Program-made: the position numbers and the translations under genes
DNA from: Candidatus Dadabacteria bacterium
GTDB lineage: Bacteria; Desulfobacterota_D; UBA1144; Nemesobacterales; Nemesobacteraceae
DNA: 64,000 nt
NCBI GenBank assembly: GCA_951812945.1
Contig: CATOTB010000001.1
Span: 488,198-552,197 of the forward strand
Direction of reading: 5' to 3'
Notes under the pieces: generated by a model
The model's database searches: none
What the model was told of the DNA's origin: nothing
Seen by the model: the letters and a program-made list of their open reading frames with translations, nothing else
Shown: piece after piece, positions 14,893 to 64,000 of the stretch
Numbering within the stretch: position 1 is the first letter of the stretch
How the letters are laid out: every line of letters starts with the position of its first letter

Positions 14893-15210
14893 CTGTTTCT
14901 GCCAACATACTGAAACTGTTTAAGTTTCAATTTTTCCCGTCTGTTATAGTTTAAAAGCTACTTTTGCCAAATTTAAAAGATGACTTTGCCCAAGTCTGCC
15001 CCTTCGTAATTCCCCGTTATTATTGAGCTTTTCCTCGGATATCCCGCTGACCAAGGCCAAAAATGGAAGTAGCGATTATATGGCGATTTTGGCTTTTTTA
15101 TAGCGCTTAAGATATCAAATTGCCCAAGAATCCGAAGAAAAAACCCGAAAAAAGACAGCAATATCAAGGCATTAAGCAAAAATAACACGAGCGCTATACA
15201 ATCGCTAGTT

Positions 15211-15352
15211 TTGTTTTGAAGGGACATTTTGAAGGGACAAGAAAAATAAGCGATATCAGGGAGGTATGAAGGGACAAGGGACAATGAAGGGACAACCGCT
15301 GTTTTTAGGTAATTTAAGCAGTTACTTAATTTTTTTGGGAAATTGTCCCTTT
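15211..15352 (+). repeat. array of GAAGGGACA(A) motifs (4 full + 1 partial direct, 1 inverted)
   Basis: direct copies at 15218, 15231, 15268, 15287 with a partial at 15277 and an inverted TTGTCCCTT at 15343. Confidence 0.7.
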
Positions 15353-15382
15353 AAGTTGACAGACTTTATTTAACGCAATTCG

Positions 15383-16684
15383 GTGTTATCCCGATTGCAA
15401 GAACGGGGCACCCTCCATTGCGTCCAGCGTCAAGACGATAAAATTGTCCTGTGGCGCGAGAAGCAGACGCGCCTGGCACAGAACAGGAGGCTCCGAGTCT
15501 CTGTGGATGCCGCCGCTATCATACTCTCGTCAGATAGCATAAAAGTCGGCGAGAGGATAAAAGTTTCCAATAACATTCTCGACAGTGAAACCGATTGGGA
15601 AGTCGCGAGGAAGGAGGAAACTTGCGACGTATTTATCCAACTCGAGCTCGTTCCTTTGCCCGACATTTATCTATCGGACCCCAGCGATCTTGACCGCCTG
15701 ACAGGAGAACTCAGTTATTTCCAGACACCTAGAAATCTCCACTTAAACGAGAGCTCCTTTAAGCCGCCTACTGACTTCTCTCAGACACATCTGGAACCAA
15801 TACGAAACCTGTTTGCGCAAACCAAGAGCGTCGGGTCGGGAGATGAAAGCGTCTTCGTCTGCGAATTAAGCTACGAGGTCCCTGCCGAAAATTACTCGGG
15901 AGCTCAAGTCTGGCTGGTTTTGGGGAACACCGGAACTCCTCAGCGAGTTACGGACGAAGGGCTGGTTGTTGACAGGCTCTCGACAACGTCACGAAAAGCT
16001 CGGTTCAACCTTCCTTTGGAGATCGCTTCCTATACGGTGGTCGTGTACTCAGTCTCGGAGAATAAGGAATTGCTCGGGTTTCCTGTTTCCTTTCTGGTAA
16101 ACACTACTCCGGTTGCAAGTGCCGGCACTGACAGGAGCGTAGGGGCTGGAGCATTCGTAATGCTAAATGGCTCAGGATCTCACGATCCGGATGGTGACAA
16201 TCTCACCTATTTCTGGGAACAGCTGTCGGGAGCGCCCGTATCGATCTCAAACCCGACCTCGGAGCGGGCCAGTTTTACGGCTCCTTCGACGAGCTCCAGC
16301 CACATCTTGGAATTTCAGCTGACGGTGAGTGATGGGACGACAAGTGCGACTGATTCCGTTGTGATCAATGTAGGGAGATATGTTCCGCCGCTTCCGCCCC
16401 AAGAACAGTGGGAACGACTTGGGGCCCCCACTGGGTTTCAGCGTTATTTTGAAGGGAGTCTGAATCAATCTCAGAGATACACCTGGAATCTTGTTCCTAA
16501 TGCTAGAGCTTACAGAATTAGCTACGTGCACGAAGGAAGCCGACGACAGAGCGACGTGGGAGAACCGCCTGCCGCCTTTCTTCAATCTGTACCATTCACA
16601 GGAGTGAGAATCCAGGCTCTCGCGAACGCTTCCTGGCTGCTAGGAACTATTCCATATCTTAATTCCGAGTGGACTTATTTGTGA
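15383..16684 (+). CDS. PKD-domain-containing hypothetical protein (GTG start, no signal peptide; possibly a gene fragment)
   Basis: PKD-like segment (AGAFVMLNGSGSHDPDGDNLTYFWEQLSGAP...FTAP...LTVSDG); start codon and N-terminus uncertain. Confidence 0.5.
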   Translation: MLSRLQERGTLHCVQRQDDKIVLWREKQTRLAQNRRLRVSVDAAAIILSSDSIKVGERIKVSNNILDSETDWEVARKEETCDVFIQLELVPLPDIYLSDPSDLDRLTGELSYFQTPRNLHLNESSFKPPTDFSQTHLEPIRNLFAQTKSVGSGDESVFVCELSYEVPAENYSGAQVWLVLGNTGTPQRVTDEGLVVDRLSTTSRKARFNLPLEIASYTVVVYSVSENKELLGFPVSFLVNTTPVASAGTDRSVGAGAFVMLNGSGSHDPDGDNLTYFWEQLSGAPVSISNPTSERASFTAPSTSSSHILEFQLTVSDGTTSATDSVVINVGRYVPPLPPQEQWERLGAPTGFQRYFEGSLNQSQRYTWNLVPNARAYRISYVHEGSRRQSDVGEPPAAFLQSVPFTGVRIQALANASWLLGTIPYLNSEWTYL

Positions 16685-16806
16685 GAACAAGACGTAGAAA
16701 AAGCGCTGTTGGGACGAAATGATCTCAAAGAATTTTCAGCATTAATCGGCTTTTTTAGTTAACATAACACCCCAGATTTTGTGAATTTCGTGGCAATTTC
16801 ATGTTA

Positions 16807-16814
16807 TAAATTTG
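16807..16814. repeat. 8-bp direct repeat TAAATTTG (putative target-site duplication, left)
   Basis: identical 8-mer immediately outside both terminal IRs. Confidence 0.5.
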
Positions 16815-16845
16815 GGGAATTATAAAGGAAAGTTGACAAAACTTC
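16815..16845. repeat. terminal inverted repeat (left) of the IS1595-family element
   Basis: 31/31 match to the reverse complement of 21812-21842. Confidence 0.7.
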
Positions 16846-16854
16846 GTAACTCAC

Positions 16855-17025
16855 TCATTTGACTTCAACAATTTTTGGGTTGCCTTTGCTGTCTTTTTGG
16901 AGGGAAAATCGGCGTTCTAAATCCTCTTTTTTCGGCTTCTTCGGACGCTCATGCTTTACCGGTCCCATGCCGAGCAATAGCTTGGCAGCCTCGTCTACCT
17001 GGTCCCATTCATCTTTCTTGCTCAT
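16855..17025 (-). CDS. small hydrophilic Lys-rich protein, 56 aa (below the ORF-track cutoff)
   Basis: hand translation MSKKDEWDQVDEAAKLLLGMGPVKHERPKKPKKEDLERRFSLQKDSKGNPKIVEVK; third in a co-oriented run of tiny ORFs. Confidence 0.35.
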   Translation of the reverse strand: MSKKDEWDQVDEAAKLLLGMGPVKHERPKKPKKEDLERRFSLQKDSKGNPKIVEVK

Positions 17026-17034
17026 TTGGTCTAC

Positions 17035-17283
17035 CTAAACTACATAAGACATTATGATTCCTGCGATAATCCCGCCCGTAAGGAGAATTAGGGGCCATGC
17101 TATTCCTATCGCAAGCACTGCGAGCATGTACAAAACGAAGCCCACGCCGAAGACTACCATGAGGGTTTGCTCAAAGCCTTTGTTTTCACCCCGCTGTTGG
17201 CGTTCCCAGTCCCTTCGCTTGGCGTTCCGCTTCAGGAGTTTCTGTCGCTTCTCATGCTCTTCCCATGTAAGTTTGCTTGCCAT
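17035..17283 (-). CDS. 82-aa small membrane protein (basic N-terminus, C-terminal TM hairpin)
   Basis: ORF with a Lys/Arg-rich N-terminal 40 aa followed by two hydrophobic helices. Confidence 0.45.
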   Translation of the reverse strand: MASKLTWEEHEKRQKLLKRNAKRRDWERQQRGENKGFEQTLMVVFGVGFVLYMLAVLAIGIAWPLILLTGGIIAGIIMSYVV

Positions 17284-17286
17284 CGT

Positions 17287-17505
17287 CTAAATTTCGACTA
17301 TTTCTTCCAAGCCCTCTCTGTGTGCCTTAATCTGGTCTTCAAACTCTTGGTTTGTAACTCTGTCCAGTATTTGCCCAATCTGAATCTGTCCTTTTGCCAG
17401 TCCTTTAATGCCAGACTCAATTCTGTCAAAGCGTTTGGTGAACTTCTCATCCAGTTCGTTTATTGCATCTAATACTTTTTTGTTATCGTCGTGAATGATT
17501 GACAT
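17287..17505 (-). CDS. 72-aa small acidic coiled-coil protein
   Basis: ORF; TATAAT box about 35 nt upstream on the minus strand; spaced 4 nt from the next ORF. Confidence 0.45.
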   Translation of the reverse strand: MSIIHDDNKKVLDAINELDEKFTKRFDRIESGIKGLAKGQIQIGQILDRVTNQEFEDQIKAHREGLEEIVEI

Positions 17506-17666
17506 GGTATTCTTGTCTCTGACACAGTTCTCTTATCTGTAATTATAGCCGGCAAAATTGGAACTGTCTGAGATTTGTTCCCCCTATTTTGGTTTTTCAG
17601 ATACGGAAACCATACCTGATTTTGCCGGCAAATTCAAGGTGTTAGAACCATCATTCTACTTCTACC

Positions 17667-18152
17667 TTACCGACTGCAAGTCCCACCTAAAAGGCTATCG
17701 TAGAACGAACTGCGACGGCAGGAAAGTTCAGGGTAGTCATCTGCACTGAAACCCTCGAAAGCTACCGTCCTTCCAGAAGCTAGCGACCAAGTGGCAAAGT
17801 AATTTCTAGACGGAAAGTCCATTGAGAGTCCGACGTATTCGTCTCCATACTGGTCTCGGTAGCCTGCTAGCATCCATGTTCCACTGGTTGTCCTGTCGTC
17901 AAAAAAATCCGTCAAGTAGGCGGCAACTGTACCGTCTTCGCAGAAAGCAAGGGCTTCATATACATCTTCGTCGTCACTACAGCTCCATATACCACTTCCC
18001 TGGATGAGAATCGCTGTGAGTTGAGCAATATCAGCGAGAGTCTCTTCACTCTCTCCTCCAGTTATTTCAGAAAATCCATCTGGAAGGTTATCTCCTCCCC
18101 CGCAACTGGTAACAAACACTAATACCAAGAAAAGAGACAAAATCGTCCTCAT
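17667..18152 (-). CDS. acidic Cys-containing lipoprotein, hypothetical
   Basis: lipoprotein signal LVFVTSC at the N-terminus. Confidence 0.6.
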   Translation of the reverse strand: MRTILSLFLVLVFVTSCGGGDNLPDGFSEITGGESEETLADIAQLTAILIQGSGIWSCSDDEDVYEALAFCEDGTVAAYLTDFFDDRTTSGTWMLAGYRDQYGDEYVGLSMDFPSRNYFATWSLASGRTVAFEGFSADDYPELSCRRSSFYDSLLGGTCSR

Positions 18153-18305
18153 AACATCCTCCTAAGTTTGGATTTGACCTCGGCAAAAAAGGGTGCCGGG
18201 CCTTGCTTACAACCAAAGAGACTTTGGACGTTCTGCTTATTTCCCAGACGGGTATTGTATTCACAGAGACCCGACAGGGCGGGTTCTCTTCAGTTGTAAG
18301 CAATT

Positions 18306-18334
18306 TTGACTATATCACAGAAGGGCGGTATAAT
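18306..18334 (+). promoter_or_regulatory. near-consensus sigma70 promoter TTGACT-N17-TATAAT driving the S1 protease gene
   Basis: hexamers and 17-nt spacer read directly. Confidence 0.5.
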
Positions 18335-18402
18335 CTATGAAAGTTTTAATCTTGTGAAACACCCCCTGCCGAGTACATTCTCCAAATTTGGCAAGTAAAA
18401 AA

Positions 18403-19212
18403 ATGAAAAGACATCTAATTATCGCAATTTTGGCAGTAATTCTTGTGGGAATTTATGCAGTGTTGCTACACGGAGAGACAAAGACACAAGCACGTGAAAT
18501 CCCAACCTCAAATATTCTGAACAGGATTCTCCCAATAAGAGTTGAGGTTAAAGAAGAATCTACTTTTAGAATTAACGAGGGAACAGTTTTCACAATAGAG
18601 GTGGATGGAAGACAATACTTGATAACTGCGAAGCATGTAACCAACCATCAAGCGGTGGAAGTGATAGAGATTTGGAGAAATGGTGGATGGACAGCAGTAA
18701 AGGTAAAAACCGTAGGAGTAGGGAAAGGAAATGAGGACATTATTGTATTAGCCGCAGATGAGAGACTAACTACCACCTTTGAAATAGAAATAGGGAGTGG
18801 CGGGATAGTATTAGGTCAAAATGTAAAATTCTTGGGATTCCCTCTCGATATTGAAGTATATATGACCCAAGCTAAGGAATGGAGAGTGCCTGTCGTAAAA
18901 GGCGGTATCCTTACCACAATTGAATCTGAGAAAGGCTCGTCCTGGTTGCTGGTAGACGGGCATGGCAACAAAGGATTTAGCGGAGGACCTGTAATATTCA
19001 AGCCACGTGAAGAAAACACTAAAACATGGAGGATTGCTGGAGTAATAAGCAGGTTTGAACCAGAAATCTTGTCTGTGATAGATAGCACAGGGAGAAAGAT
19101 AGAAGGCTTAGGGGTTGTAGGAAACTCCGGCATTATGGTGGCAACAGGAATTGAAGCAGCTTTGAAGCTAATTAAAGCAAACCCCATAGGATATCTCGTT
19201 AAAGAAAAGTGA
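18403..19212 (+). CDS. membrane-anchored trypsin-like (S1/chymotrypsin-fold) serine peptidase
   Basis: N-terminal TM anchor; catalytic His context TAKHV and Ser motif GFSGGPV; the track ORF begins at an upstream TTG (18388) and ATG 18403 is more likely. Confidence 0.7.
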   Translation: MKRHLIIAILAVILVGIYAVLLHGETKTQAREIPTSNILNRILPIRVEVKEESTFRINEGTVFTIEVDGRQYLITAKHVTNHQAVEVIEIWRNGGWTAVKVKTVGVGKGNEDIIVLAADERLTTTFEIEIGSGGIVLGQNVKFLGFPLDIEVYMTQAKEWRVPVVKGGILTTIESEKGSSWLLVDGHGNKGFSGGPVIFKPREENTKTWRIAGVISRFEPEILSVIDSTGRKIEGLGVVGNSGIMVATGIEAALKLIKANPIGYLVKEK

Positions 19213-19250
19213 ACGAAAGCCTAACTTACTAATATGACTAAACAATCTAC

Positions 19251-19258
19251 CCCCCCCC
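19251..19258 (+). repeat. homopolymeric C tract (C8 by the coordinate grid) in the 5' region of the methyltransferase gene
   Basis: read directly; lies between an upstream ATG (19235) and the conserved MTase N-terminal region. Confidence 0.6.
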
Positions 19259-19310
19259 TAAATCTAACTGGAAAGACAAGACAGTTTTTACGGGAGACAA
19301 TCTCCCCATA

Positions 19311-20480
19311 ATGCGCAGGATGAATTCCGACTGCGTAGACCTGATTTACTTAGACCCCCCTTTCAACAGCAAAACAAACTATGCTGCACCTATTGGTAGT
19401 CATGCGGCCGGTGCCGAGTTTAAGGATACTTGGACTCTCTATGACATAGATATTGTCTGGCTTGATTTACTTGAAGCCAAGCATCCAGCACTCAATCGAG
19501 TTATTCACGCTACTTTGACCAAGAGTGATAAATCTTATCTGATTTACATGGCGATTAGGTTGCTGGAAATGAGGCGGATACTGAAACCGGCCGGAGGCAT
19601 TTATCTTCACTGTGACCCAACAATGAGTCACTATTTGAAGCTGGTAATGGATGCTATATTCGGAAGAGAGAATTTTAGAAATGAAATTATTTGGGCTTAC
19701 ACGGGGCCAGGGTCTCCCAATATGAGGCAGTTTAACCGCAAGCACGATGTGATCTTCTGGTACTCAAACGGTGAAGACTGGACATTTAATGGGGATGCTG
19801 TTCGAGTATTGCATAAAAAACCTATTGGGGCTGGAGGCACATCTACAAAATGGCTGAAAGAGAAAGAAGATTTGGCGGAAAAATACAAAGGCGGGAAGAT
19901 TCCCGAGACATGGTGGACGAGGTTTTCTCCTGTCGGAAGGATTAAGGGAGAACGCACTGGTTATCCCACACAGAAACCGAGAAAGTTGTTAAAGCGAATA
20001 ATTGAAGCTAGTAGTCCAAGAGGGGGCATTGTATTTGACCCATTCTGTGGTTGTGCTACGACCTGCATAGCCGCAGAGGAATTAAACCGGCAATGGATAG
20101 GAATTGATATCTCGCCCAAAGCGGCGGAACTTGTACAAACCAGAATACTGAATGAACTAGGTTTTGCTGGACGTGAACATCAGATAATTCACCGCCAGGA
20201 CATTCCACAGAGAACAGATTTAGGAGAGATTCCAAAGTACAACTGTAAGGAGAACAAGAACAGATTGTATGGAGAGCAAGGTGGGCATTGCAACGGATGC
20301 AGAGAACACTTCCAAATGCGTCATTTAGAAGTGGACCACATCATTGCTCGCTCACAGGGTGGCACAGACCACATTGAGAATTTGCAAATGCTCTGTGGAA
20401 ACTGCAATCAGATTAAAGGCAATCGTGGACACGAGTACCTGTTGGCAAGAATGGAAGGGAGAAAAGTACCCTACGCATGA
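19311..20480 (+). CDS. beta-class DNA methyltransferase (DPPF motif IV preceding FDPFCG motif I) fused to a C-terminal HNH endonuclease domain
   Basis: DLIYLDPPF, FDPFCGCATT, then HLEVDHIIARSQGGTDHIENLQMLCGNCN; the conserved N-terminal region extends upstream of ATG 19311 and is frame-linked to ATG 19235 only if the C tract changes length. Confidence 0.85.
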   Translation: MRRMNSDCVDLIYLDPPFNSKTNYAAPIGSHAAGAEFKDTWTLYDIDIVWLDLLEAKHPALNRVIHATLTKSDKSYLIYMAIRLLEMRRILKPAGGIYLHCDPTMSHYLKLVMDAIFGRENFRNEIIWAYTGPGSPNMRQFNRKHDVIFWYSNGEDWTFNGDAVRVLHKKPIGAGGTSTKWLKEKEDLAEKYKGGKIPETWWTRFSPVGRIKGERTGYPTQKPRKLLKRIIEASSPRGGIVFDPFCGCATTCIAAEELNRQWIGIDISPKAAELVQTRILNELGFAGREHQIIHRQDIPQRTDLGEIPKYNCKENKNRLYGEQGGHCNGCREHFQMRHLEVDHIIARSQGGTDHIENLQMLCGNCNQIKGNRGHEYLLARMEGRKVPYA

Positions 20481-20492
20481 CCAAACTACGAA

Positions 20493-20741
20493 TCAGTAAA
20501 AAAACTTTGCAGTTAAAATTCCAGAAATTACACCGATAGCTATAGCTGGCCATTTATCAAGAAAATAAGCTTTTAGACTGGGATATGCAGATGCCCTTTT
20601 TTCTAACCACCAAATTATAATCCAAACTATGCCAACGATACCAAGAACTTCCCGTGCCTCGATACTTGAAAAAACTTTTGAAAGGAGATACGCCGCTGCG
20701 AAAGAAACTAGGAACTGCCTGAATGTAGGGAGATGATTCAT
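20493..20741 (-). CDS. 82-aa small membrane protein, hypothetical
   Basis: ORF with 2-3 hydrophobic helices. Confidence 0.35.
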   Translation of the reverse strand: MNHLPTFRQFLVSFAAAYLLSKVFSSIEAREVLGIVGIVWIIIWWLEKRASAYPSLKAYFLDKWPAIAIGVISGILTAKFFY

Positions 20742-20764
20742 TTTCTGTTCACAAAAGCGGAGGT

Positions 20765-21697
20765 CTAAGAAGTCAGTTTTTCAAAGGTAATGGTCTTGCC
20801 CACCATAGCACCGAACAGGGCGTTCAGTCTATCTTCTGTATCAACCTTGCAACTTCCTTCGCTCAAACGAAAAGCGAACTCGTTGATATAGGCACGCATG
20901 TGCTTCTTACTCCAGTTGTGGTAAACGCCGTTGTATCCACGCTTCATGACCGCCCATACGCTTTCAATCCCGTTGGTAGAAGCCATGCCATTTACGAATT
21001 CTTTCGCTGAATGATTGACTGTTCCGTGTTCAAAATCCTTCCCGAGTAATCCGCTATAGCCTTTATGTTCATCCGTAAACACGATGGAACCCTTAACGAC
21101 ATTTTCGCTTATCTCTCTTTCGAGGGTTTCCGCGTCCCGTCTTTCAATAGGAATTGCCTTAGTCTTGCCGCCACGTTCTCTCATGCCGAGTACGCAGGTC
21201 TTTCCAACAGGTCCACGTCCGGCGTGAAGCTTCTTGGATTCGTGTTTGTTTTTTTCGAGACCTCCCAGAAAAGTTTCGTCTATTTCCACAACTCCCTTCA
21301 AGGCTTCCATATCGCTTCCGCAGGCAAGACGCAGACGGTGAAGCATGTACCAAGCAGTGGGTTGGGAAACAGCCAGTTCCTTGCTTAGCTGGAGACTGCT
21401 TATGCCCTTTCTGGCTGTCATTAGCAGATAAGCGGCGAATATCCACTTGCGAAGGTCAATCTTTCCATACTCAAGCGGAGTTCCGGTGCGAGCGGTGAAA
21501 TACTTGCGACAATTCCCGCACCAGTAACGTCCAGGGTGTTTGAATTGAGGGGTGATCTTCTCGGTGCTACCGCACCTTGTGCAGTGCCTCTTGTTACCCC
21601 ATCTCTGATTCTCAAGATACTTGATAGCATCTTCCTCAGTAGGATATTTCTGCATCAACTCGAACAAGCTGATTATCTTTGCATGTTTCTTTTTCAT
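20765..21697 (-). CDS. IS1595-family (ISXO2-like) transposase with N-terminal zinc ribbon
   Basis: CxxC...CxxC zinc ribbon (HCTRCGST...WCGNCRKYF) followed by a DDE ISXO2-like domain; 310 aa. Confidence 0.85.
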   Translation of the reverse strand: MKKKHAKIISLFELMQKYPTEEDAIKYLENQRWGNKRHCTRCGSTEKITPQFKHPGRYWCGNCRKYFTARTGTPLEYGKIDLRKWIFAAYLLMTARKGISSLQLSKELAVSQPTAWYMLHRLRLACGSDMEALKGVVEIDETFLGGLEKNKHESKKLHAGRGPVGKTCVLGMRERGGKTKAIPIERRDAETLEREISENVVKGSIVFTDEHKGYSGLLGKDFEHGTVNHSAKEFVNGMASTNGIESVWAVMKRGYNGVYHNWSKKHMRAYINEFAFRLSEGSCKVDTEDRLNALFGAMVGKTITFEKLTS

Positions 21698-21811
21698 GAT
21701 GGTATAAGATACCTGAAAAAGAAGGGTTTGTCAACTCTTGTTCCTGTTTTTTAGGAGAGTTCTCAGTGACTTAGATATTTCTTGATTCTAGCTTCGGAAA
21801 TGGGTTCAATA

Positions 21812-21842
21812 GAAGTTTTGTCAACTTTCCTTTATAATTCCC
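21812..21842. repeat. terminal inverted repeat (right) of the IS1595-family element
   Basis: exact reverse complement of 16815-16845. Confidence 0.7.
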
Positions 21843-21850
21843 TAAATTTG
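21843..21850. repeat. 8-bp direct repeat TAAATTTG (putative target-site duplication, right)
   Basis: identical to 16807-16814. Confidence 0.5.
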
Positions 21851-21868
21851 GCAAGATCATTTTACCCG

Positions 21869-22054
21869 TTATACTTGGCGATCCGAACTTCGCTCGTACC
21901 GCGCTGCCCCAACCATCTCATCTGCTTCAGAGTCAAGGACCTTGTTCAATACTTCCTCTACCGTATCGGTGACTATGGAGCTTAGGTGACCCCTAAGCTC
22001 CTCGTGGTTAATCTGAATTACCTTTTTGGGGCTCTTCGCTGTATAATCTCTCAT
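21869..22054 (-). pseudogene. N-terminal 61-codon fragment of an IS256-family transposase
   Basis: LNKVLDSEADEMVGAARYERSSDRQ matches the conserved IS256/mutator-type N-terminal region; reading frame decays after the stop. Confidence 0.55.
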
Positions 22055-22077
22055 GGCGGTGTTTCCTCCATGTTAAA

Positions 22078-22109
22078 TAAATTTAGGTAATTACCCCTAT
22101 AACTAGCCA
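22078..22109. repeat. 32-bp perfect inverted repeat, copy A (23 bp upstream of the IS256-like transposase fragment)
   Basis: TAAATTTAGGTAATTACCCCTATAACTAGCCA is the exact reverse complement of 22505-22536. Confidence 0.7.
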
Positions 22110-22444
22110 AAAGTAAAATGAGGGAGCGGTTGCTGGAGGACGGCACTGTCCTTGGTGTTTTTTGTATAATATTCGAGTGTTTTTGGATCTAATAGGGGGG
22201 GTGTATAGACTTAAGTTTACAAGTCCTCCAAACCCTGTATCGCTTCCTCGAACCCGCGGTGTAGTGCTTTAAATTCCAAGAGCCATCTTACCCCGGCGAC
22301 ATTTTTGCTTCTCGTGGAAGCAGGTAATTCATCGGACTGAATTCATGTTGGGGAGGTTTGAGAGTTCCATTTACTCGAGTGGAGCAGGGGAGGCTTATTA
22401 GGACCAACCGTTCTGTATCATCCTGAAATAACTTAGTATTTACC

Positions 22445-22474
22445 TTGACAAACAGTTAGACAGAAATATAGAAT
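22445..22474 (+). promoter_or_regulatory. putative promoter TTGACA-N18-TAGAAT inside the IR-bounded 395-bp segment, facing the 22571 ORF
   Basis: hexamers read directly. Confidence 0.3.
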
Positions 22475-22504
22475 TACCGTTAAGTACTATTATGATGGAG
22501 CAAG

Positions 22505-22536
22505 TGGCTAGTTATAGGGGTAATTACCTAAATTTA
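22505..22536. repeat. 32-bp perfect inverted repeat, copy B
   Basis: exact reverse complement of 22078-22109. Confidence 0.7.
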
Positions 22537-22570
22537 AGAGCACTATTTATCTAACCGGATTCATGAAGAA

Positions 22571-24004
22571 ATGCCGCCTCTTTTTTTAATTTGCGAAAAA
22601 TTTAAAGCGTTATCGATGTTGGGGGATAGAAACATAAGACTGTCGTTTGCTGCGCGATACTTACTAGCTACCTTTTTTTTGACTTCTTTACCGTATATTT
22701 CCATCGGTCAATCTACAAATGAGCTTGTGGGAAACTTGGGCTCCGCTCTTACGGTCGGACAGATAATAAATCAGGCGTCCGATGCGGCAGATGATTTGGT
22801 TACGGAGGGGTTTGATCGTTTTGATAGTTCGGTCTTGCTGGCAGCGACTGAAGCGAGAGCCACTGTAAATCAAGTGTCACTTCAACTCGCCGACTCAATC
22901 AATCTTTCGGTAGAGCAATTGGACTCGCAACAACGCAGAGTTATCTCAGATCTAGAGTCTTTGACGACGACAATTACCGAGGCAATAGCAAAAGACGTTG
23001 CGGACATAGTTACGCCTATTCAGGGTGACATCCGGTTACTATTATCTCGAAATCCTGGCTTCATACGTATTTCAGGAGGATTTGCCACACGACAAGATAA
23101 GTATCTTGAGTTCCAACTCAAAGGCACCGCTCTGTCTCAAGCGGACATTGATAACTTCCAAGTTAATTCTGTAGAGTCCAAACCGAATGTTGTTTCTAGC
23201 GATGACACGCACGTTAAGATACGCATCCCCCTTGATGAGCCACCAATCGCTGATCTTTTAGGCTCTGGCGACAGCTTCGATGAACTGATCGAGATTCCGA
23301 TAAGCTTCGTTTTGAAGGAATGTGGTTTGCTCGGTATGTTTTGTAATTATGATCGGAAATTTTCGCTACTTGGCTATGTATTTCCGGAAAACGTTGGAAC
23401 TGTAAAAGCTGTATTTGACGGATGGATCTCGACGGAAGAGCGGATGCAACGTAAGCTAGAGTTTATAAGCGATAAGGTGAGAACGAGGGTGCGTCTTCTT
23501 CCTCCTGAAGTTCGAGCTGGGGATCGGCGGGACATATGGTCCATGACTCCTCACGATGGGTGGAGAATTGATACCCGGTCGGCCGATTTCGATTTCGTTA
23601 AATTATATGGAGGATGCAGCAATTCGCGATGTTCCGCATCATGGGAAGAAAAAACAGAACACATACTCCGAGTTAAAGCAAGGACCTCGTCTGATAGGAG
23701 GGTCGGCGTAACCTGTAAGACATCGACAACCATTAAGTTTTCGCAATGGCGCACCAATACCAATCGCCATACCCATGAGACGGATGCCGTTGAGATTGTA
23801 GTCGATGGAACTACGCATCTTCCTTTGGATAAAACCATAGGTCTAACTAACGCGCGCCTTTCTCATCTAGTGATCCAATCGCCGTTGTTTCGACGAGGAG
23901 AGGAGAGGATACTCCGAGATGGCCAAAAAATTGGTGGACTGCGAGTAGAATACGACACTGCAACTCAAACCGTCTTTCTTCACAGCTCTATGAACATGAA
24001 CTAA
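22571..24004 (+). CDS. hypothetical 477-aa protein with N-terminal membrane anchor
   Basis: long ORF with no family I recognise; hydrophobic segment near the N-terminus. Confidence 0.45.
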   Translation: MPPLFLICEKFKALSMLGDRNIRLSFAARYLLATFFLTSLPYISIGQSTNELVGNLGSALTVGQIINQASDAADDLVTEGFDRFDSSVLLAATEARATVNQVSLQLADSINLSVEQLDSQQRRVISDLESLTTTITEAIAKDVADIVTPIQGDIRLLLSRNPGFIRISGGFATRQDKYLEFQLKGTALSQADIDNFQVNSVESKPNVVSSDDTHVKIRIPLDEPPIADLLGSGDSFDELIEIPISFVLKECGLLGMFCNYDRKFSLLGYVFPENVGTVKAVFDGWISTEERMQRKLEFISDKVRTRVRLLPPEVRAGDRRDIWSMTPHDGWRIDTRSADFDFVKLYGGCSNSRCSASWEEKTEHILRVKARTSSDRRVGVTCKTSTTIKFSQWRTNTNRHTHETDAVEIVVDGTTHLPLDKTIGLTNARLSHLVIQSPLFRRGEERILRDGQKIGGLRVEYDTATQTVFLHSSMNMN

Positions 24005-24100
24005 TGCGGTTTTATCGAACAGATCCTCTATATCTGTTGTCACAGAAGGGGTCCGGTCGGGGAATTGTTATTTGTTTTTTTCGACTTTAATATTAAGAAG

Positions 24101-24775
24101 GTGTCTGGAAAAGCGGTTGTCATGGTTTCGGGAGGCGTGGACAGCTCGACTCTCTGCTACAAGGCGGTACGGGAAGGTTACGAAGTCTTTCCTCTTACCT
24201 TTATATACGGACAGAAGCACGAGAAGGAGATCCGCTCCTCAGAGAATATATGCCGTCATCTGGGACTTGCCCCCAACATAATCGACCTTTCCTCAATAAG
24301 GACTCTTTTCGGCGCCTGCGCGCTTACCGATCGGGAAGTCGAGATTCCGAGAGTCTCCGCGACGGCGCGCAATTACGATACTCTTTCCGCCACAGTCGTT
24401 CCGAACCGAAACGCCATTTTCCTTTCTCTGGCGGTTGCCTATTCGCAGGGTATCGGTTGCGATACGGTGTTCTACGGCGCGCATCATTCCGACAAGGGAG
24501 TATATCCTGACTGCCGCATGGAGTTTGTTTCCGCTTTCGAGGAGGCTGAGAAACTTGCGACTGGTAACGAACGATTAACGATAGTTGCTCCATTTGTGGA
24601 TCTGGACAAATCAGGCATAGTCAGACTCGGTTCACGTCTCGGGGTTCCTTTCAAGGACACGTGGTCATGCTACGTGGGCTCCCGGATGCACTGCGGCACC
24701 TGCAGTTCCTGCAGAGAAAGAAAAAGGGCTTTTATCGAGGCGGACATAACCGACCCGACCGAATACGAGGCGTAA
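24101..24775 (+). CDS. queC: 7-cyano-7-deazaguanine synthase
   Basis: PP-loop SGGVDSS and C-terminal Zn motif CGTCSSCRER; the track ORF starts at TTG 24065, and GTG 24101 or ATG 24122 is more likely. Confidence 0.85.
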   Translation: MSGKAVVMVSGGVDSSTLCYKAVREGYEVFPLTFIYGQKHEKEIRSSENICRHLGLAPNIIDLSSIRTLFGACALTDREVEIPRVSATARNYDTLSATVVPNRNAIFLSLAVAYSQGIGCDTVFYGAHHSDKGVYPDCRMEFVSAFEEAEKLATGNERLTIVAPFVDLDKSGIVRLGSRLGVPFKDTWSCYVGSRMHCGTCSSCRERKRAFIEADITDPTEYEA

Positions 24776-24780
24776 TTGCG

Positions 24781-25422
24781 GTGAAGGTAAACGAGATCTT
24801 TTTTTCAATACAGGGTGAAGGGATCCATATCGGGCTGCCGACAGTTTTTCTCAGGCTCTTTGCCTGCGATCTCAGATGCAGTTGGTGCGATACCATGTAC
24901 GCCGTGGAGGGAACCGACTTTCGGGAAATGGGAACCAGTGAAGTGCTGAGCCAGATTCTTAAATACAGCTGCTCCCGGGTCTGCATAACCGGAGGGGAAC
25001 CGCTTATCCAGCGGGAAGCCGTGGAGGAGGTGACGGAGTTTCTGCTTGATAGGGATTTTGTGGTCGTGCTTGAAACAAGCGGGAACAAGAAACCTCCCCG
25101 GATTTTCTCCCATCCCAATTCGGTTGTGAGCATGGACTGCAAGTGCCCCGGTTCGGGCATGGCCTCCAGAATGGATTTTTCCCTCTATGATGCCTTGGAG
25201 GAGAAGGACCAGCTTAAGTTCGTAATAGCCGACGATGCGGATTACGAATACGCAAGGGATATTATAGGGGAGCGTTGCGTCAGAGCTTCAATCATATTCC
25301 AGCCCGTTTACGGCACAAAAGCGGACTGGATAGCGGAGAGAATTCTCCGCGACGGCATGGAAGACATAAGAGTGCTTCCGCAGCTTCACAAAATATTCTG
25401 GGGAGAAAAAAGAGGAGTCTGA
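24781..25422 (+). CDS. queE: 7-carboxy-7-deazaguanine synthase (radical SAM)
   Basis: VNEIFFSIQGEG and the CxxxC-containing radical-SAM motif CDLRCSWCDT; GTG start at 24781 (the track ORF at 24661 overlaps queC). Confidence 0.82.
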   Translation: MKVNEIFFSIQGEGIHIGLPTVFLRLFACDLRCSWCDTMYAVEGTDFREMGTSEVLSQILKYSCSRVCITGGEPLIQREAVEEVTEFLLDRDFVVVLETSGNKKPPRIFSHPNSVVSMDCKCPGSGMASRMDFSLYDALEEKDQLKFVIADDADYEYARDIIGERCVRASIIFQPVYGTKADWIAERILRDGMEDIRVLPQLHKIFWGEKRGV

Positions 25423-25437
25423 GACCTCTTGCCTCTT

Positions 25438-26793
25438 TCATCGTTTTAAAACTTTGCTTAGGAAACTTGTTGAGAGCAAAGCAAATGTTATTAAGAACAG
25501 ATTGAGCAAGGTGCTTTGAGAAGTATTGTTGATTGACGCTATAGCGCACCCACCATCATTCTCTTCTTCCATATCTAGATAAATTCCAGAACCAACAAGA
25601 AAGAAAGACGGTGTCGGACGGCGACCCCCAGTCGTATCCACTACTTGAATATAGCTTTCCTTAACCGATCTGCCCGGAACTACGCTTCTTTCGAGATAAT
25701 CACTGACTTCATCACCATCAATTCCAGGGTGATCCCAATGATATTTAACAAAACCGCTATTTCCATCTGCTAAATCTGCTAAATCGCCACTTCCTTTTGT
25801 CACCACCTTTTGAAAAGCAACAAGGATGTTTGATTCAATATCTCCTTCATCGTTATATGGGATTGGCATTGGGTCTTCCAGTGAAACGCTTAATCCATGA
25901 AGGTCAAAGTCTAATCCATTTAGAAATGCCACTCCGCTTGTCGGGTCCATAATGAAAGGATATATTGTGCCGTATTTAAAATCCCCCGAAGCAAAGCAGG
26001 AGACTGTTTCACCAATTCGCACAAGGATTTCTTGCTGCCCTTCCGGAGTATTGGGGTCAAAGCCGTCTCTTCTTATTTCGCCAATCGTAGCAACTGCCAA
26101 TTCCAGTGTCTTGTTGATAATGTTTTTCACATAGCTTTGAAGCAACTCTCTTTTCTTCTCTGGATTTGTCTCGTCTTCAACCTGCTTGGCGGTAGTGTCG
26201 AGTCTAAAATTGGAGCAGTCAGGTGATTGTACGAAAGAAGCGTCAGGCTCATGATGAAAACCTACTATGCTGGTTATAAACCCAATAGTTGTTATGTTCT
26301 GTTTGATCGCGCATGCTGTTCTTTCTTGGCCGCCCTCACTATACCTTACGCAAACTGGATCGGCGCTTTCTTGAAATTCAGGAACATTATCAAATAAATC
26401 GTTTAGCGGATTTTCAGCGGAAAGATTGAATTTATCACCAAACGATTCTGGATATCGACCATGATTTAATATTGTCTTTCTCGAACTGACAACGGTTATA
26501 GAGTAAATATTGTTGTGATTAAAAACTCCAGGTTTTCTTGTTGTTCGTGCGAAGATTGTGCGCTCTTTTCCCTTTGCGTGCGATGTTTCAAGGGACTCGT
26601 CCTTATAAATTTTATCAATATGCGTGGCTCTATGGAGAAGAAGCTTTTTTATCTTCGCCACATCATTGGCATCGGCAACATCTTCTGCAGTTATATCAAG
26701 GTTTGCTGAATGACTATAATGTTTATACTGATGAGCGGACGCATTGATGGTAAGTGCAAAAAGCAGAACTAAAAATATTCCATATGATTTCAT
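25438..26793 (-). CDS. secreted hypothetical protein with signal peptide and a C-terminal hydrophobic anchor plus basic tail
   Basis: N-terminal signal FLVLLFALTINASA; C-terminal LLNLFLITFALLSTSFLSKVLKR. Confidence 0.45.
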   Translation of the reverse strand: MKSYGIFLVLLFALTINASAHQYKHYSHSANLDITAEDVADANDVAKIKKLLLHRATHIDKIYKDESLETSHAKGKERTIFARTTRKPGVFNHNNIYSITVVSSRKTILNHGRYPESFGDKFNLSAENPLNDLFDNVPEFQESADPVCVRYSEGGQERTACAIKQNITTIGFITSIVGFHHEPDASFVQSPDCSNFRLDTTAKQVEDETNPEKKRELLQSYVKNIINKTLELAVATIGEIRRDGFDPNTPEGQQEILVRIGETVSCFASGDFKYGTIYPFIMDPTSGVAFLNGLDFDLHGLSVSLEDPMPIPYNDEGDIESNILVAFQKVVTKGSGDLADLADGNSGFVKYHWDHPGIDGDEVSDYLERSVVPGRSVKESYIQVVDTTGGRRPTPSFFLVGSGIYLDMEEENDGGCAIASINNTSQSTLLNLFLITFALLSTSFLSKVLKR

Positions 26794-27124
26794 GTGCGAT
26801 TCTCTCCTCTTAGGCTTCCCTTATACTTATGGAGAATTACCCCCTTAAGTCACGACAGGTTATCGGCGTTAACCGAACACCATGGACTGTAAAAGTACAA
26901 TACAACTGCGAAGCAGCTGTCTCAGAAAGACATCCTCAACATTTAAGACACCTTCGCGTAATTGAAACCGCTTTCTAACAGGTCGCCCATTGATAACAAC
27001 CGGTCAGTATAGTCTCAATTATACTTTCCCCATACTCCCAAGATCAACTGGAATTTTACAATCCTACCAAACTTTAATGTTTTTGTTGCTATTATGTTAG
27101 AATTCAGGGTATAAAGAATAGGCC

Positions 27125-57625: not shown

Positions 57626-59154
57626 ATGACAGAAATTTCTTCCTCCGCCGCGCCCTTCGGCAAGGTCGGAACCGCGGCCGTAATAGACGTAGGATCAAAC
57701 TCCATACGTCTTGTGATCTACAAGGGCCCGAGGCGCGCCCCGCTTCCAATACTTGATGAGAAGGTTTCCTGCGGCTTGGGGCGCGGGATGGACTCTCGGG
57801 GCAGGATGTCTCCGCAGAGCATGGATCTCGCCCTGCGAACTGTAAGCCGCTTTGTCGATATCGCGCGCTCGATGAAGGTTTCCGGAATAAAGGCGGTTGC
57901 CACCGCCGCGGTGAGAAACGCCTCAAACGGCTCCGACTTCAAAGAGGCTGTTGAGCAGCAATGCGGGATTTCACTTCGGGTGCTCTCTGGCATGGACGAG
58001 GCAAGGCTTTCCGCGCTCGGTACTCTCTGCGCCATTCCTGACGCTGACGGCGTAATGGGGGATATAGGCGGCGGAAGCCTTGAGTTGGTAGAGATTTGCG
58101 AAGGGGAATTAGGAAACCACGCCACGTTACCGCTTGGCACGATCCCGCTTCTTGAAAGCGGCCTGAGTCCCGTAAAGGCCCGAAAGAAACTGATTGTCCC
58201 CCTCCTTGACGAGCTTTCCTGGCTTGAGAACGCGAAAAAGAAAACCTTCTACGCCGTCGGGGGTTCGTGGCGAGCTCTTGCTAAAAAACACATGGAATCT
58301 GAGGATTATCCGCTTCGCATAGTTCACGGCTACAGTCTTTCGAGATCCAAGGCGGTTGAGATGTCCGGGAGATAGCCGAGATGTCTTCGGGTTCGCTTCA
58401 GGATCTCTGGACCCTGGGGCGAAACAGGGTGGAGTCCGCTCCCTACGCCGCCACGCTTATGAAGAGTCTTCTGAAAAAAACGGGCGTTAACAACCTCATG
58501 TTTTGCACGTACGGGCTTCGGGAGGGATGTATATACGACGATCTTTCCCCGGAGCAGAGTTCTCTGGATCCGCTGGTTGTCATGTGCGAGGAAATCGCCC
58601 TTAAGATGGGAAGGTCCGTTGAGGACGGCAAGGCTTTCTGCAAGTGGATAGAGGCGGCAATTCCAGATAAATACGCCGGAGACTCGAGGCTTAGGCTCGC
58701 CGCATGCCATCTCTCGGACATAGGAATTTCCGAGCATCCGGAATACCGGGCGGAGCAGGTGTTTTTAAGGATACTGCGGATGCCGCTTGTGGGAATCACT
58801 CATCCGGAGAGGGTGAAGGTGGCTCTCTCGGTATCTTCAAGACACGCGGCAATAGGAAACCTGATTCGCCGCTGGGAAGTTTCCGGGTTTCTTTCCAATG
58901 ATGATGTGGAGGAAGCCAGGGTTACGGGGCTTGCTCTTCGTCTGGCTTACACGGTCTCGGGAGGGGTGGCGCGGATTCTTGAGAGTACCAGGCTTGAGAG
59001 AGCCGGGAAAAAGCTTGCTTTGCATATGCCTGGCCAGATTCCTCACCCGGAAACCGTCGGTCGCCGTCTGGGGGCCCTTGCAAAGGCCGTCGGATGCGAT
59101 TATGAGACGATTGCGCGGGATCAAGCTAATGAAACCGCTGGGTGGGGAACTTAG
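57626..59154 (+). CDS. ppx: Ppx/GppA-family exopolyphosphatase, split into two ORFs by a frameshift near 58345-58395 (57626-58375 and 58381-59154)
   Basis: N-terminal actin-like Ppx-GppA domain (VIDVGSNSIRLVIY) in ORF 1; the continuation (…GLREGCIYDDL) and HD-like region in ORF 2 are in another frame. Confidence 0.65.
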
Positions 59155-59203
59155 ATTCGTGTAGAATTCCCTCTGACTTTTAGCTGTTTGCTGGTCGGAT
59201 CTG

Positions 59204-60106
59204 ATGAATTTACTTGACGCAATAGACAACCTGAATATCTGGAAGCAAGGGGACAAAAGAGCTCCTCACAAGCCTCTACTTCTTCTATATGCGCTCGCTG
59301 AACAAGTCCGAAATCCAGACGCTAGGTTTGAGTTTTTTCGTATAGAAGAAAATATTGATCAGTTATTAAATGATTTTTACAAATCATTTCCCGGACGCAG
59401 ACACCATGTAAATGATCCTTTCTGGCGCCTTCGCGGGGATGGAATCTGGAAAGTAGAATCCGACGGAATAATAAGGGAAACCAGTTCAGGAGGTGCTTAT
59501 GTAAGCGATTTAAGGAAATACAATGCTACGGGTTCGTTTTCTAAAGGGGTTGTTCAAGAGATAAGAAATAATCCTGAAGTTGCTTTGCAGGCCGCACGGA
59601 AACTGCTTAATGAACATTTTCCCGAATCATTGCATCAAGATATACTGGAGACTGTAGGATTAGATTACAAGACAATTTCTGCTAAAGAATACATTTCTAA
59701 AAAAACTAAAAGAGACAGTACATTTCGGCAGAAGGTTCTTCACGCCTACGGTTACAGTTGTGCGGTGTGCGGGTTTAATCTGCGCATGAAAACTCTTCCT
59801 GTCGGACTGGAAGCGGCGCATATCAAGTGGCATCAGCATGGAGGACCAGATGCTGAAAACAACGGACTGGCACTATGCGCCACGCACCACAAGTTGCTTG
59901 ACTCGGGGGTGCTGGCACTCTCTGACAATTACCAAATCATTCTTTCAGAGTGGATATTTGATCCCGACCGAAAAAACAGTTTTATACGGGAGCATCATAA
60001 CCGTGAAATCAGATTGCCTAGGAACAGCAACCATTTGCCCAAAATGGATTATATCCGCTGGCACAGAAAAGAAGTGTTTAAAGAACCCGAACTAGTTTTG
60101 ATTTAG
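59204..60106 (+). CDS. McrA-like HNH endonuclease with an uncharacterised N-terminal domain (candidate modification-dependent restriction enzyme)
   Basis: C-terminal HNH: CAVCGF...LEAAHIKWHQHGGPDAENNGLALCATHHKLLDSG; N-terminal domain with KAPHKPLLLLYAL; AT-rich. Confidence 0.65.
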   Translation: MNLLDAIDNLNIWKQGDKRAPHKPLLLLYALAEQVRNPDARFEFFRIEENIDQLLNDFYKSFPGRRHHVNDPFWRLRGDGIWKVESDGIIRETSSGGAYVSDLRKYNATGSFSKGVVQEIRNNPEVALQAARKLLNEHFPESLHQDILETVGLDYKTISAKEYISKKTKRDSTFRQKVLHAYGYSCAVCGFNLRMKTLPVGLEAAHIKWHQHGGPDAENNGLALCATHHKLLDSGVLALSDNYQIILSEWIFDPDRKNSFIREHHNREIRLPRNSNHLPKMDYIRWHRKEVFKEPELVLI

Positions 60107-60539
60107 TAGTACTAAGTGAAATAAATTCTCAAATCTGATTGCGAGATGCGGCAATACGAAGAAAAAGCCTTTTTTGATTCTTGAGATACTGCCAAGATAA
60201 AGTGATAGCAACAATCTGTATGGAACTTTCAACGTCGCAACAATCTCTGGGCATGCCAAGTCTTAATCGTGCATGGTTGCTTGGAATCTTGGCCAACATC
60301 TCTTCATGAGATCGTTGCCGATGTACTGTGATAAAAGGAATTTGAATTGTTCGGTATGTACTTCTTTAAGCTTATTACCAAACGAATGATCAAGGCATGT
60401 GTAGGCAGTTCCTCAAAACACCGAAAAGAACTGACAAAGGAGATGCCGCTTGGAAACAAATGGGTGGTTTAGGGCGGCATTACAGTTGTTGCCACCATGC
60501 TGGAGAGAACCCTGACGAGGCAAACACAGGAGTATTGCG

Positions 60540-61586: not shown

Positions 61587-61642
61587 CGGAAACGCAGTCT
61601 GGGAAAAACAATGTCTTGCGTCAATCAACATGACTCAAGTTT

Positions 61643-63926: not shown

Positions 63927-64000
63927 GGCGGACATTGCGGATATTTCAGAAGGTTATGGGGCAGAGCAATGCCAGTCAGATTTTCTCGTTGTATTTTCGT

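Follow-up and report, generated by a model that had tools for sequence, protein, structure and literature searches.

The 64,000-nucleotide stretch of DNA analysed here (the window) is part of contig CATOTB010000001.1 of a Candidatus Dadabacteria bacterium assembly. It contains an insertion sequence (IS) of the IS1595 family that carries a gene for a DNA methyltransferase (MTase) fused to an HNH nuclease domain. As called, the open reading frame (ORF) occupies positions 19311..20480 on the plus strand and encodes a protein of 389 amino acids, which comprises the MTase (residues 9-275), a conserved linker (residues 283-326) and the HNH domain (residues 327-372). Alignments of 31 and 54 homologues place a variable, putative target-recognition region at about residues 150-215.

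The MTase half matches the Pfam family N6_N4_Mtase (PF01555) over residues 9-275 with an E value of 1.2e-47 and 163.1 bits (cutoff 26.7), and positions 1-219 of the 221 in the profile are covered. The motif DPPF (residues 15-18) precedes FDPFCGCATT (residues 242-250), with the variable region between them, which is the motif order of beta-class enzymes. The nearest solved sequences and folds are those of the beta-class N6-adenine MTases M.BceJIV, RsrI, CcrM and MboIIA, which have a DPPY/F-type motif IV and the same motif order. However, these enzymes lack a nuclease domain and are ~20% identical to the fusion, and the C-terminal DNA-binding domain of CcrM corresponds in position to the linker and HNH domain. 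The top NCBIfam match, the YhdJ-like PRK11524, is under its cutoff. An AlphaFold model, with a predicted local distance difference test (pLDDT) score of 67.6 overall and 40-58 in the HNH part, served only to confirm the beta-class MTase fold. The methylase probably modifies N6-adenine, because it has DPPF instead of SPPY/F and its best matches are N6-adenine enzymes; N4-cytosine enzymes (8s9m, PvuII) match as well.

The HNH domain (20289..20426, plus strand) has the pattern CxxC … DH … N … CxxCN. It matches Pfam HNH (PF01844, residues 327-372, E 1.4e-13, 51.2 bits against a cutoff of 21.4) and HNH_5 (E 1.3e-11, 44.6 bits against 27.5). In a residue-by-residue alignment to the HNH domain of Cas9 (8d2k, E 8e-7), residues C327/C330, D342-H343, N357, C362/C365 and N366 all match their counterparts, and the HNH domain of a group II intron maturase was aligned too. 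Judged by these residues, the domain is catalytically complete, with the general-base His, the structural Asn, the metal-binding Asn/His and both CxxC zinc pairs intact. Pfam and the alignments place intact nuclease and MTase active sites on one polypeptide. The HNH subtype, with two CxxC pairs, DH, N and N, is that of Cas9, IscB and group II intron maturases. Unlike those proteins, the fusion has no RuvC, PLMP, reverse transcriptase or guide-RNA components. An RNA-guided nuclease, an idea raised by the IscB and Cas9 matches, was rejected, as Pfam finds neither RuvC nor PLMP and Rfam finds no known RNA family within the IS.

No restriction endonuclease (REase) or specificity (S) subunit is found by Pfam or PADLOC among the neighbours of the fusion in the window. 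PADLOC assigns the fusion itself to MTase_II, MTase_III and oMTase models only, and the REase_MTase_IIG model is absent.

The IS is 5,028 bp in length (16815-21842) and has perfect 31-bp terminal inverted repeats (IRs) and a perfect 8-bp target-site duplication (TSD). The left IR, GGGAATTATAAAGGAAAGTTGACAAAACTTC (16815..16845, plus strand), is distal to the transposase and matches the complement of the proximal right IR (21812..21842, minus strand) at 31 of 31 positions. Its start, GGGAATTATA, is common to related ISs. The identical 8-mer TAAATTTG lies outside both ends (16807..16814 and 21843..21850). A 38-nucleotide inverted repeat at 16808 and 21849 is resolved into the 31-bp IRs plus an 8-bp direct repeat, since the flanking 8-mer fits a direct repeat at 8/8 positions versus 6/8 as an IR extension. 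The transposase gene (20765..21697, minus strand) is intact and encodes 310 amino acids with Zn_ribbon_IS1595 and DDE_Tnp_IS1595 domains (Pfam PF12760, 1.8e-9, and PF12762, 4.5e-41; NCBIfam NF033547 transpos_IS1595, 190.7 bits against a cutoff of 75). The IS is present as a single copy within the window, and its insertion appears recent because the IRs and TSD are perfect. Ends of the GGGAATTAT type fit the ISNwi1 consensus ggnnatTAT, and 5,028 bp is at or above the size range of the ISNwi1-type group.

An earlier note on this DNA, made from the sequence, described a beta-class MTase with a canonical HNH domain at its C-terminus, carried as IS cargo with no adjacent REase or specificity gene. 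The Pfam matches, the motif order, the alignment to Cas9, the survey of neighbours and the delimited IS (31-bp IRs, 8-bp TSD) bear out each of these points. The same note called the MTase an orphan, but the word is a poor label for an enzyme that is covalently joined to an intact nuclease.

The ORF at 19311-20480 exists as that note gave it, but 19311 is an internal methionine codon of a gene that is frameshifted near its 5' end as sequenced. This follows because the conserved N-terminus of the family, NWKDKTVFTGDNLPIM, is encoded in frame upstream of 19311, where it has no start codon, and because the ATG at 19234 is in frame only if a run of nine C residues (C9, 19250..19258, plus strand) were C10. 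With C9, a stop codon is reached after 25 codons; with C10, translation from ATG 19234 gives MTKQSTPPPKSNWKDKTVFTGDNLPIMRRMNS… / MTKQSTPPPKSNWKDK…, so that the 5' leader (19234..19310, plus strand) continues into the conserved N-terminus. The leader is homologous in L204, L206 and L208, and the tract is the sole G or C run of at least eight in the window.

The C tracts of several relatives lie at the same position in the leader and differ in length. The tract is out of frame in the window (C9), in L204 (C12) and in L206 and L207 (C10, identical in two samples), and it is in frame in L208 (C9) and L202 (C24). Both ON and OFF alleles therefore occur among close relatives. Elsewhere, the leader in L005 includes an 8-nucleotide tandem repeat, L030 has a frameshifting C8 within its DPPF codons, and L143 is frameshifted at a G-run. 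In roughly one in five database homologues, counted by eye, the gene call starts at an internal methionine (MRGMNS or MNS), as in the window ORF. Slipped-strand phase variation at homopolymer tracts is a known signature of mod genes and of restriction-modification (R-M) genes. The poly-C tract probably turns the gene ON and OFF by slippage, and the window copy would be OFF as sequenced.

Perhaps the window copy is instead dead cargo, with a C9 tract that reflects a fixed inactivating mutation or an error of assembly. In favour of this, the frame for the full-length protein is interrupted, no obvious ribosome-binding site is seen by eye before the internal ATG at 19311, and the IS-borne copies in L030 and L143 are frameshifted too. 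However, the remaining 389-codon frame is open and retains all conserved residues at 59-73% identity to relatives. Moreover, the site of the break coincides with the tract whose length varies among relatives, some of which have it in frame, and a recent insertion is indicated by the flawless IRs and TSD. Death of this copy is a possibility that we consider doubtful, and it is compatible with the family-level interpretation developed below. For any single copy, assembly error or decay of the tract is possible.

The fusion belongs to a large and widespread family, which the earlier note missed, as it did the poly-C frameshift. Both domains are present in 120 of the 120 best full-length database matches (60-73% identity, 380-490 amino acids), and the few named proteins among these are called 'DNA methyltransferase' or 'hypothetical protein'. 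A query with the linker and HNH region retrieves 745 representative clusters at E<=1e-10. In an alignment of 31 sequences, with identities as low as 42%, and in one of 54 closer relatives, the motifs DPPF and FDPFCGCATT, both CxxC pairs, D342-H343, N357 and N366 do not vary. Residues ~150-215 are hypervariable and include large insertions in L006 and L030. Such a combination of invariant catalytic residues and a hypervariable region is expected where enzymes retain their chemistry and evolve new DNA specificities.

The chromosomal position of the fusion is unrelated between genomes and is often on ISs, and the gene has no stable lineage-wide place. Searches of cultured phages and plasmids with tblastn detect the MTase part only, at no more than 46% identity, and the sole full-length coverage is in Geobacillus virus E3 (28%). 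In IMG/VR, the HNH domain is covered in 1 of the 80 loci kept. A phage or plasmid origin was rejected as the typical home of the fusion, given its rarity in these collections. A free-standing homing endonuclease was also rejected, as there is no conserved target site or gene and the flanking genes differ at every locus. The earlier note named two outcomes that would count against it, an HNH domain without its catalytic His or Asn and close homologues that are universally paired with a separate REase gene. Neither is seen: the residues are present and invariant, and the homologues are solitary except for an IS1595 transposase, their only recurrent neighbour.

The fusion is a habitual passenger of one IS1595 clade that has GGGAATTAT ends and 8-bp TSDs. 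Thirty-six genomic loci with relatives of the transposase were fetched, and MTase-HNH genes lie beside several of them. IR-bounded IS1595 elements that contain the fusion number six and come from six different assemblies (the window, L007-type, L205, L208, L030 and L006), so that a transposable location, which the earlier note regarded as unusual, is the rule for this clade. The closest relative of the window IS, in L006, resides in a metagenome-assembled genome (MAG) of Thermodesulfobacteriota. It is ~80% identical to the window at the nucleotide level inside the IS only, and is thus an independent insertion of a related element. The homologues P0002 and P0005 (73% and 71% identity to the window protein) are each directly followed by a convergent IS1595 transposase, and the P0005 contig (L208) represents a complete 2,639-bp IS. 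P0016 (L205) lies within a 3,593-bp IS with the TSD TAAACTAT, and P0025 (L209) lies between two copies of the right IR (IR-R), with the transposase adjoining. Loci with the transposase beside the fusion include L206, L209, L136, L143 and L156. In an independent metagenome sample, where contigs are short, it is adjacent in 3/33 fused loci. Among loci of the clade at 59% identity or more, the transposase is within 1.4 kb in 6/13, and clustering of neighbours over 42 loci identifies the IS1595 transposase as the sole recurring neighbour, in contexts that are otherwise unrelated.

In its smallest form the element is a 2,286-bp IS that consists of the transposase and MTase-HNH genes only. One MAG contains 6 copies of this IS that are 98-100% identical, with a perfect 8-bp TSD in 5/6 and an identical intact fusion ORF in 6/6. 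Transposition as a unit with cargo is established for these relatives, by the 6-copy IS at different sites and by L205 with its TSD, rather than for the window copy. The same MAG also contains five copies of a cargo-less sibling IS of 1.41 kb. A test for purifying selection on the six copies was uninformative, because their fusion ORFs are 100% identical.

Two of the six copies, L012 and L016, differ from L007 (9986-10912) in the transposase half alone, by 23 synonymous and 14-15 non-synonymous codons, and their cargo half is identical. They are mosaics that presumably arose by recombination with the cargo-less sibling IS of the same genome. In L205 (3632-7224) and L209 (5369-7774), the cassette is followed by its own IS right end, and a second right end, degenerate or intact, lies between the cassette and the transposase. 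The extra IR-R resembles the footprint of gene capture by an IS through a more distal IR-R.

A rival idea is that the enzyme serves the transposon. For example, the HNH domain might cut sister DNA or sites that are empty or from which the transposon was excised, and the ensuing repair would restore or spread the IS, with the methylase as a shield for other sites in the host. Such an enzyme would be a functional analogue of TnpB or IscB in IS200/605 elements, guided by protein instead of RNA. The transposase is the only recurrent neighbour, the minimal IS multiplied to 6 copies, and the HNH subtype is the one found in IscB, Cas9 and group II introns. Also, one homologue (L001 8001-9954, 68% identity) is located 270 bp upstream of an IS200/605-type Y1 transposase (PF01797), in the usual position of tnpB or iscB, although this is a single case. 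On the other hand, the sibling IS without cargo multiplied to 5 copies in the genome that also contains the minimal fusion-bearing IS, and the fusion is therefore not needed for transposition. The TSDs are diverse AT-rich 8-mers that provide no common site for a site-specific enzyme, and the target-recognition region varies widely among IS-borne copies whose IS ends are similar. Further, no IS is seen close to about half of the clade members, sibling ISs hold ordinary Type IIG R-M genes in the same slot, and the element includes no known RNA family (Rfam). A role of this kind is quite unlikely. In a broader variant, MTase-HNH proteins would not function in host defence at all. They would be accessories of IS1595, and perhaps of IS200/605 elements as in L001, and would be a protein-guided counterpart of TnpB and IscB, in which the methylase marks 'self' and the poly-C tract times activity. 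They would nick or cut unmethylated, transposon-free or newly replicated DNA and so bias repair, copy number or retention toward the IS. We regard this variant as decidedly unlikely.

Other genes carried by the same clade offer a guide to the function of the cargo. ISs with GGGAATTATA… ends have 8-bp TSDs and range from 1.4 to 5.8 kb. L025 (10906-13732) and L031 (10906-13008) contain full-length Type IIG REase-MTase genes as IS cargo (PADLOC, 1e-98), and in L025 the gene is followed by a Type II S subunit in a BcgI-like layout. L038 (3923-5569) contains a copy of a Type IIG REase-MTase that is degraded and in pieces. These three ISs are 4.05 kb, 3.58 kb and about 3.45 kb in length, respectively, and those in L025 and L031 have 8-bp TSDs. 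Further passengers of the clade include HicA and SocA/Panacea toxin-antitoxin-type genes. These examples suggest that compact R-M or addiction modules are what the cargo slot typically holds.

L032 (7126-9609) contains a ~2.5-kb IS1595 element whose cargo encodes a 503-amino-acid beta-class MTase with a C-terminal Mrr_cat domain of the PD-(D/E)XK fold (motif GVDG…VVEVKGG). This protein has the same scaffold and architecture as the MTase-HNH proteins and a different nuclease fold. Because L032 swaps the HNH domain for an unrelated nuclease, it appears that nuclease activity, and not mere DNA binding, is what is selected.

The L032 protein bears on the idea that the fusion is an epigenetic regulator (a phasevarion) or protects mobile DNA from host restriction. 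Its HNH domain would then be an accessory for binding or nicking at the position of the C-terminal domain of CcrM. Indeed, the characterised proteins closest to it (M.BceJIV, CcrM and the YhdJ-like PRK11524) are beta-class MTases of the solitary or regulatory kind. The alignment of CcrM ends at residue 329 of the fusion, which implies that HNH replaces the CcrM C-terminal domain. Also, a 5' homopolymer switch is classic for the mod genes of phasevarions. However, all catalytic residues and zinc ligands of the HNH domain are invariant over deep divergence, which is difficult to explain for a mere binding module, and in L032 the HNH domain is exchanged for another nuclease fold and not for another binding domain. 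Orphan regulatory MTases such as CcrM and Dam have no cognate nuclease and occupy a lineage-wide position, whereas the fusion has an intact HNH domain and is found in unrelated contexts with no lineage-wide retention. A mainly regulatory or protective function is unlikely.

We favour, with a probability of roughly 0.55, an interpretation in which the fusion combines R-M-like functions in one polypeptide, ISNwi1-like IS1595 elements are its carriers and a hypermutable tract gates it. This interpretation builds on the observed integrity of both domains, the structure of the IS, its recurrent carriage of the gene, the lack of a partner gene and the polymorphism of the tract. The methylase would mark host copies of a target site that is set by the variable central region, and the HNH domain would cut or nick the same site when the mark of its own MTase is missing, as occurs in Type IIG/IIC enzymes. 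Beta-class MTases are commonly dimers, as is established for CcrM, RsrI and MboIIA, and a dimer could join two HNH domains to make a double-strand cut. The result might be restriction, a penalty for loss of the IS, or both, such that the IS would be useful to its host as a defence against phages and plasmids and would be costly to lose. Slippage in the poly-C tract would switch expression of the whole enzyme ON or OFF and so limit self-damage, and the C9 copy in the window would be an OFF, N-truncated allele.

Several points weigh against this interpretation. No control over the fused nuclease and methylase is apparent, and each switch to ON would then carry a risk of cleavage of host DNA. HNH domains of the subtype found in Cas9, IscB and group II intron maturases usually serve mobile-element functions and often nick only. 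The HNH part of the structure model, at its low pLDDT, is too weak to indicate domain geometry. Roughly one half of the clade is solitary and has no neighbouring IS, and around the solitary copies in L001-L005 and L042 a search for GGGAATTAT-type ends or flanking IRs of at least 14 bp yields only chance-level repeats, so these copies are not recognisably IS-borne. In L143 and L156, the fusion gene is separated from the transposase by an IS end, which means that the two genes can be adjacent without carriage of the fusion by the IS. The window copy is frameshifted, as are L030 and L143, and it may simply be dead, and homopolymer lengths may be miscalled in assemblies. Finally, the literature yielded no biochemical evidence for methylation, cleavage or restriction by members of the family.

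Among characterised systems, an R-M-like enzyme of this design resembles the Type IIG/IIC enzymes, which are MmeI-like or, with an S subunit, BcgI-like. They also combine nuclease and MTase in one chain, have a variable specificity region and need no REase as a second protein. Such enzymes are often mobile, phase variation occurs in some, and bona fide members reside on sibling ISs. In them, however, a PD-(D/E)XK nuclease occupies the N-terminus and the MTase is of the gamma class (N6_Mtase, PF02384), whereas the fusion has the reverse order, a beta-class MTase (PF01555) and an HNH nuclease. The fusion is accordingly outside the known Type IIG sequence families, as PADLOC reports MTase models only and both the MTase class and the nuclease fold differ.

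The carriers have precedents as well. IS1595-family ISs with passenger genes (ISNwi1-type) are known (Siguier, Gagnevin & Chandler 2009, as cited in PMC2853133), and they share with the window IS a transposase with Zn-ribbon and DDE_Tnp_IS1595 domains, terminal IRs, an 8-bp TSD and passengers between the IRs. Transposon-like mobile R-M units, in which R-M genes are bounded by IRs and associated with short target duplications and transposases, have also been described (Furuta, Abe & Kobayashi 2010, PMC2853133; Takahashi et al. 2011, PMC3031569). Those units are mostly multi-gene R-M systems that often have no transposase inside, whereas here an autonomous IS clade repeatedly carries one-gene enzymes. 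As for the tract, phasevarions (Type III mod and Type IIG genes) likewise have a 5' coding homopolymer that sets the frame, with ON and OFF alleles among relatives. Phasevarions are known mainly from host-adapted pathogens, such as Haemophilus, Neisseria, Helicobacter and Campylobacter. In contrast, the fusion occurs in MAGs of uncultured environmental or symbiotic bacteria, its gene is located on an IS, and the length variation is known between relatives.

Passenger-bearing IS1595 elements, IR-bounded mobile R-M units and phase-variable R-M genes are thus each known separately. The fusion family, its habitual carriage by IS1595 elements and its poly-C leader are apparently new, as no description of any of these was found in the literature, a search that did not extend to REBASE and ISfinder. 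If the favoured interpretation holds, the family represents a new one-protein R-M architecture, a beta-class MTase with a C-terminal HNH domain, that is widespread in uncultured bacteria. The 2.3-2.6-kb ISs, transposase included, would then be among the smallest known autonomous mobile units with a complete self/non-self system. The fusion-bearing ISs would also provide a clean model for the co-evolution of defence or addiction genes with ISs and for cargo capture, as in the extra IR-R of L205 and L209. Compact site-specific nickases or nucleases with naturally diversified specificities might be obtained from the family, and a poly-C switch would extend phase-variable R-M beyond host-adapted pathogens.

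The window IS contains several further passengers. A trypsin-like serine protease of 274 amino acids (18388..19212, plus strand; Pfam Trypsin_2, 1.1e-6) is encoded upstream of the fusion on the same strand and is confined to the window IS among all loci examined. It has weak PADLOC matches (1e-9 to 1e-6) to the protease parts of LmuA, HamA and an RT-protease protein (UG/DRT class XI). Upstream of it is a conserved intergenic region (18192..18358) with 82% nucleotide identity to L006 12602-12770, where the flanks are unrelated. The best sigma-70-like promoter match, TTGACT-17-TATAAT (18306-18334, plus strand), is in this region and fits 11/12 consensus positions, a consensus match only. Perhaps protease and fusion act jointly as a two-gene defence system, as they are separated by a 98-bp gap, share the promoter-like site upstream, and include a protease domain that weakly resembles the protease modules of defence proteins. 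This is very improbable, given that the protease is absent from all of the other MTase-HNH loci (more than 40) and that, in L006, the closest relative of the IS, the conserved promoter region directly abuts the fusion gene.

The remaining passenger ORFs lie on the minus strand. Those of 56 amino acids (16855-17025), 82 amino acids (17035-17283, hydrophobic by eye) and 72 amino acids (17287-17505) have no Pfam match, and a 161-amino-acid protein whose N-terminus by eye is lipoprotein-like (…FVTSCGG; 17667..18152) has no Pfam or PADLOC match. Nor has a hydrophobic 82-amino-acid ORF between the fusion gene and the transposase (20493..20741). The 56- and 82-amino-acid distal ORFs are 77% and 52% identical to homologues at the same end of the IS in L006 (15206-15649), and they therefore belong to a shared IS backbone. 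These two conserved ORFs, which match no family, may have an uncharacterised backbone function in the larger ISs.

Some loci of relatives have features of their own. In L156, a ~13-nucleotide direct repeat (CCTTTGAGGGCGG) at about 5880 and about 7230 flanks the MTase-HNH gene just outside the adjacent IS end, which may reflect an insertion with target duplication that is independent of the IS. The surroundings of P0025 (L209 1-10388) resemble a defence island, with an OLD-family TOPRIM/AAA protein and a UvrD helicase (Gabija-like), AbiJ/Abi_C and further transposases. In the metagenome loci L126, L129 and L145, a second MTase-like tblastn match lies right beside the MTase-HNH gene and may represent a tandem paralogue or an extra methylase.

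The DNA to the right of the window IS is a small graveyard of mobile elements. A 61-amino-acid N-terminal fragment of an IS256/Mutator-type transposase (21869-22054, minus strand; Pfam 6.6e-4) is wedged between the right end of the IS and a 443-bp element (22086-22528) that resembles a miniature inverted-repeat transposable element (MITE). The MITE-like element has perfect 24-bp terminal IRs, GGTAATTACCCCTATAACTAGCCA, that are related to the IS ends, and it is probably mobilised in trans because it has no transposase of its own. Its flanks (22078-22085 and 22529-22536) are TAAATTTA on both sides, nearly the IS target TAAATTTG. To the left of the IS, a solo IS-end-like sequence, GGAAATTGTCCCTTTAAGTTGACA (15338-15365), is in left-end orientation just upstream of an ORF with a PKD domain (15383-16684), and no right end that would pair with it was detected in the window. 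The G+C content is 0.41-0.47 at 15000-27000 and 59000-64000 and 0.50-0.55 elsewhere, with exceptions among the 1-kb bins at 24-25 kb (0.51) and 9-10 kb (0.45). The low-G+C stretch at 15000-27000 includes the IS, the MITE-like element, the IS256-type fragment and several ORFs without matches, and it may be a horizontally acquired island.

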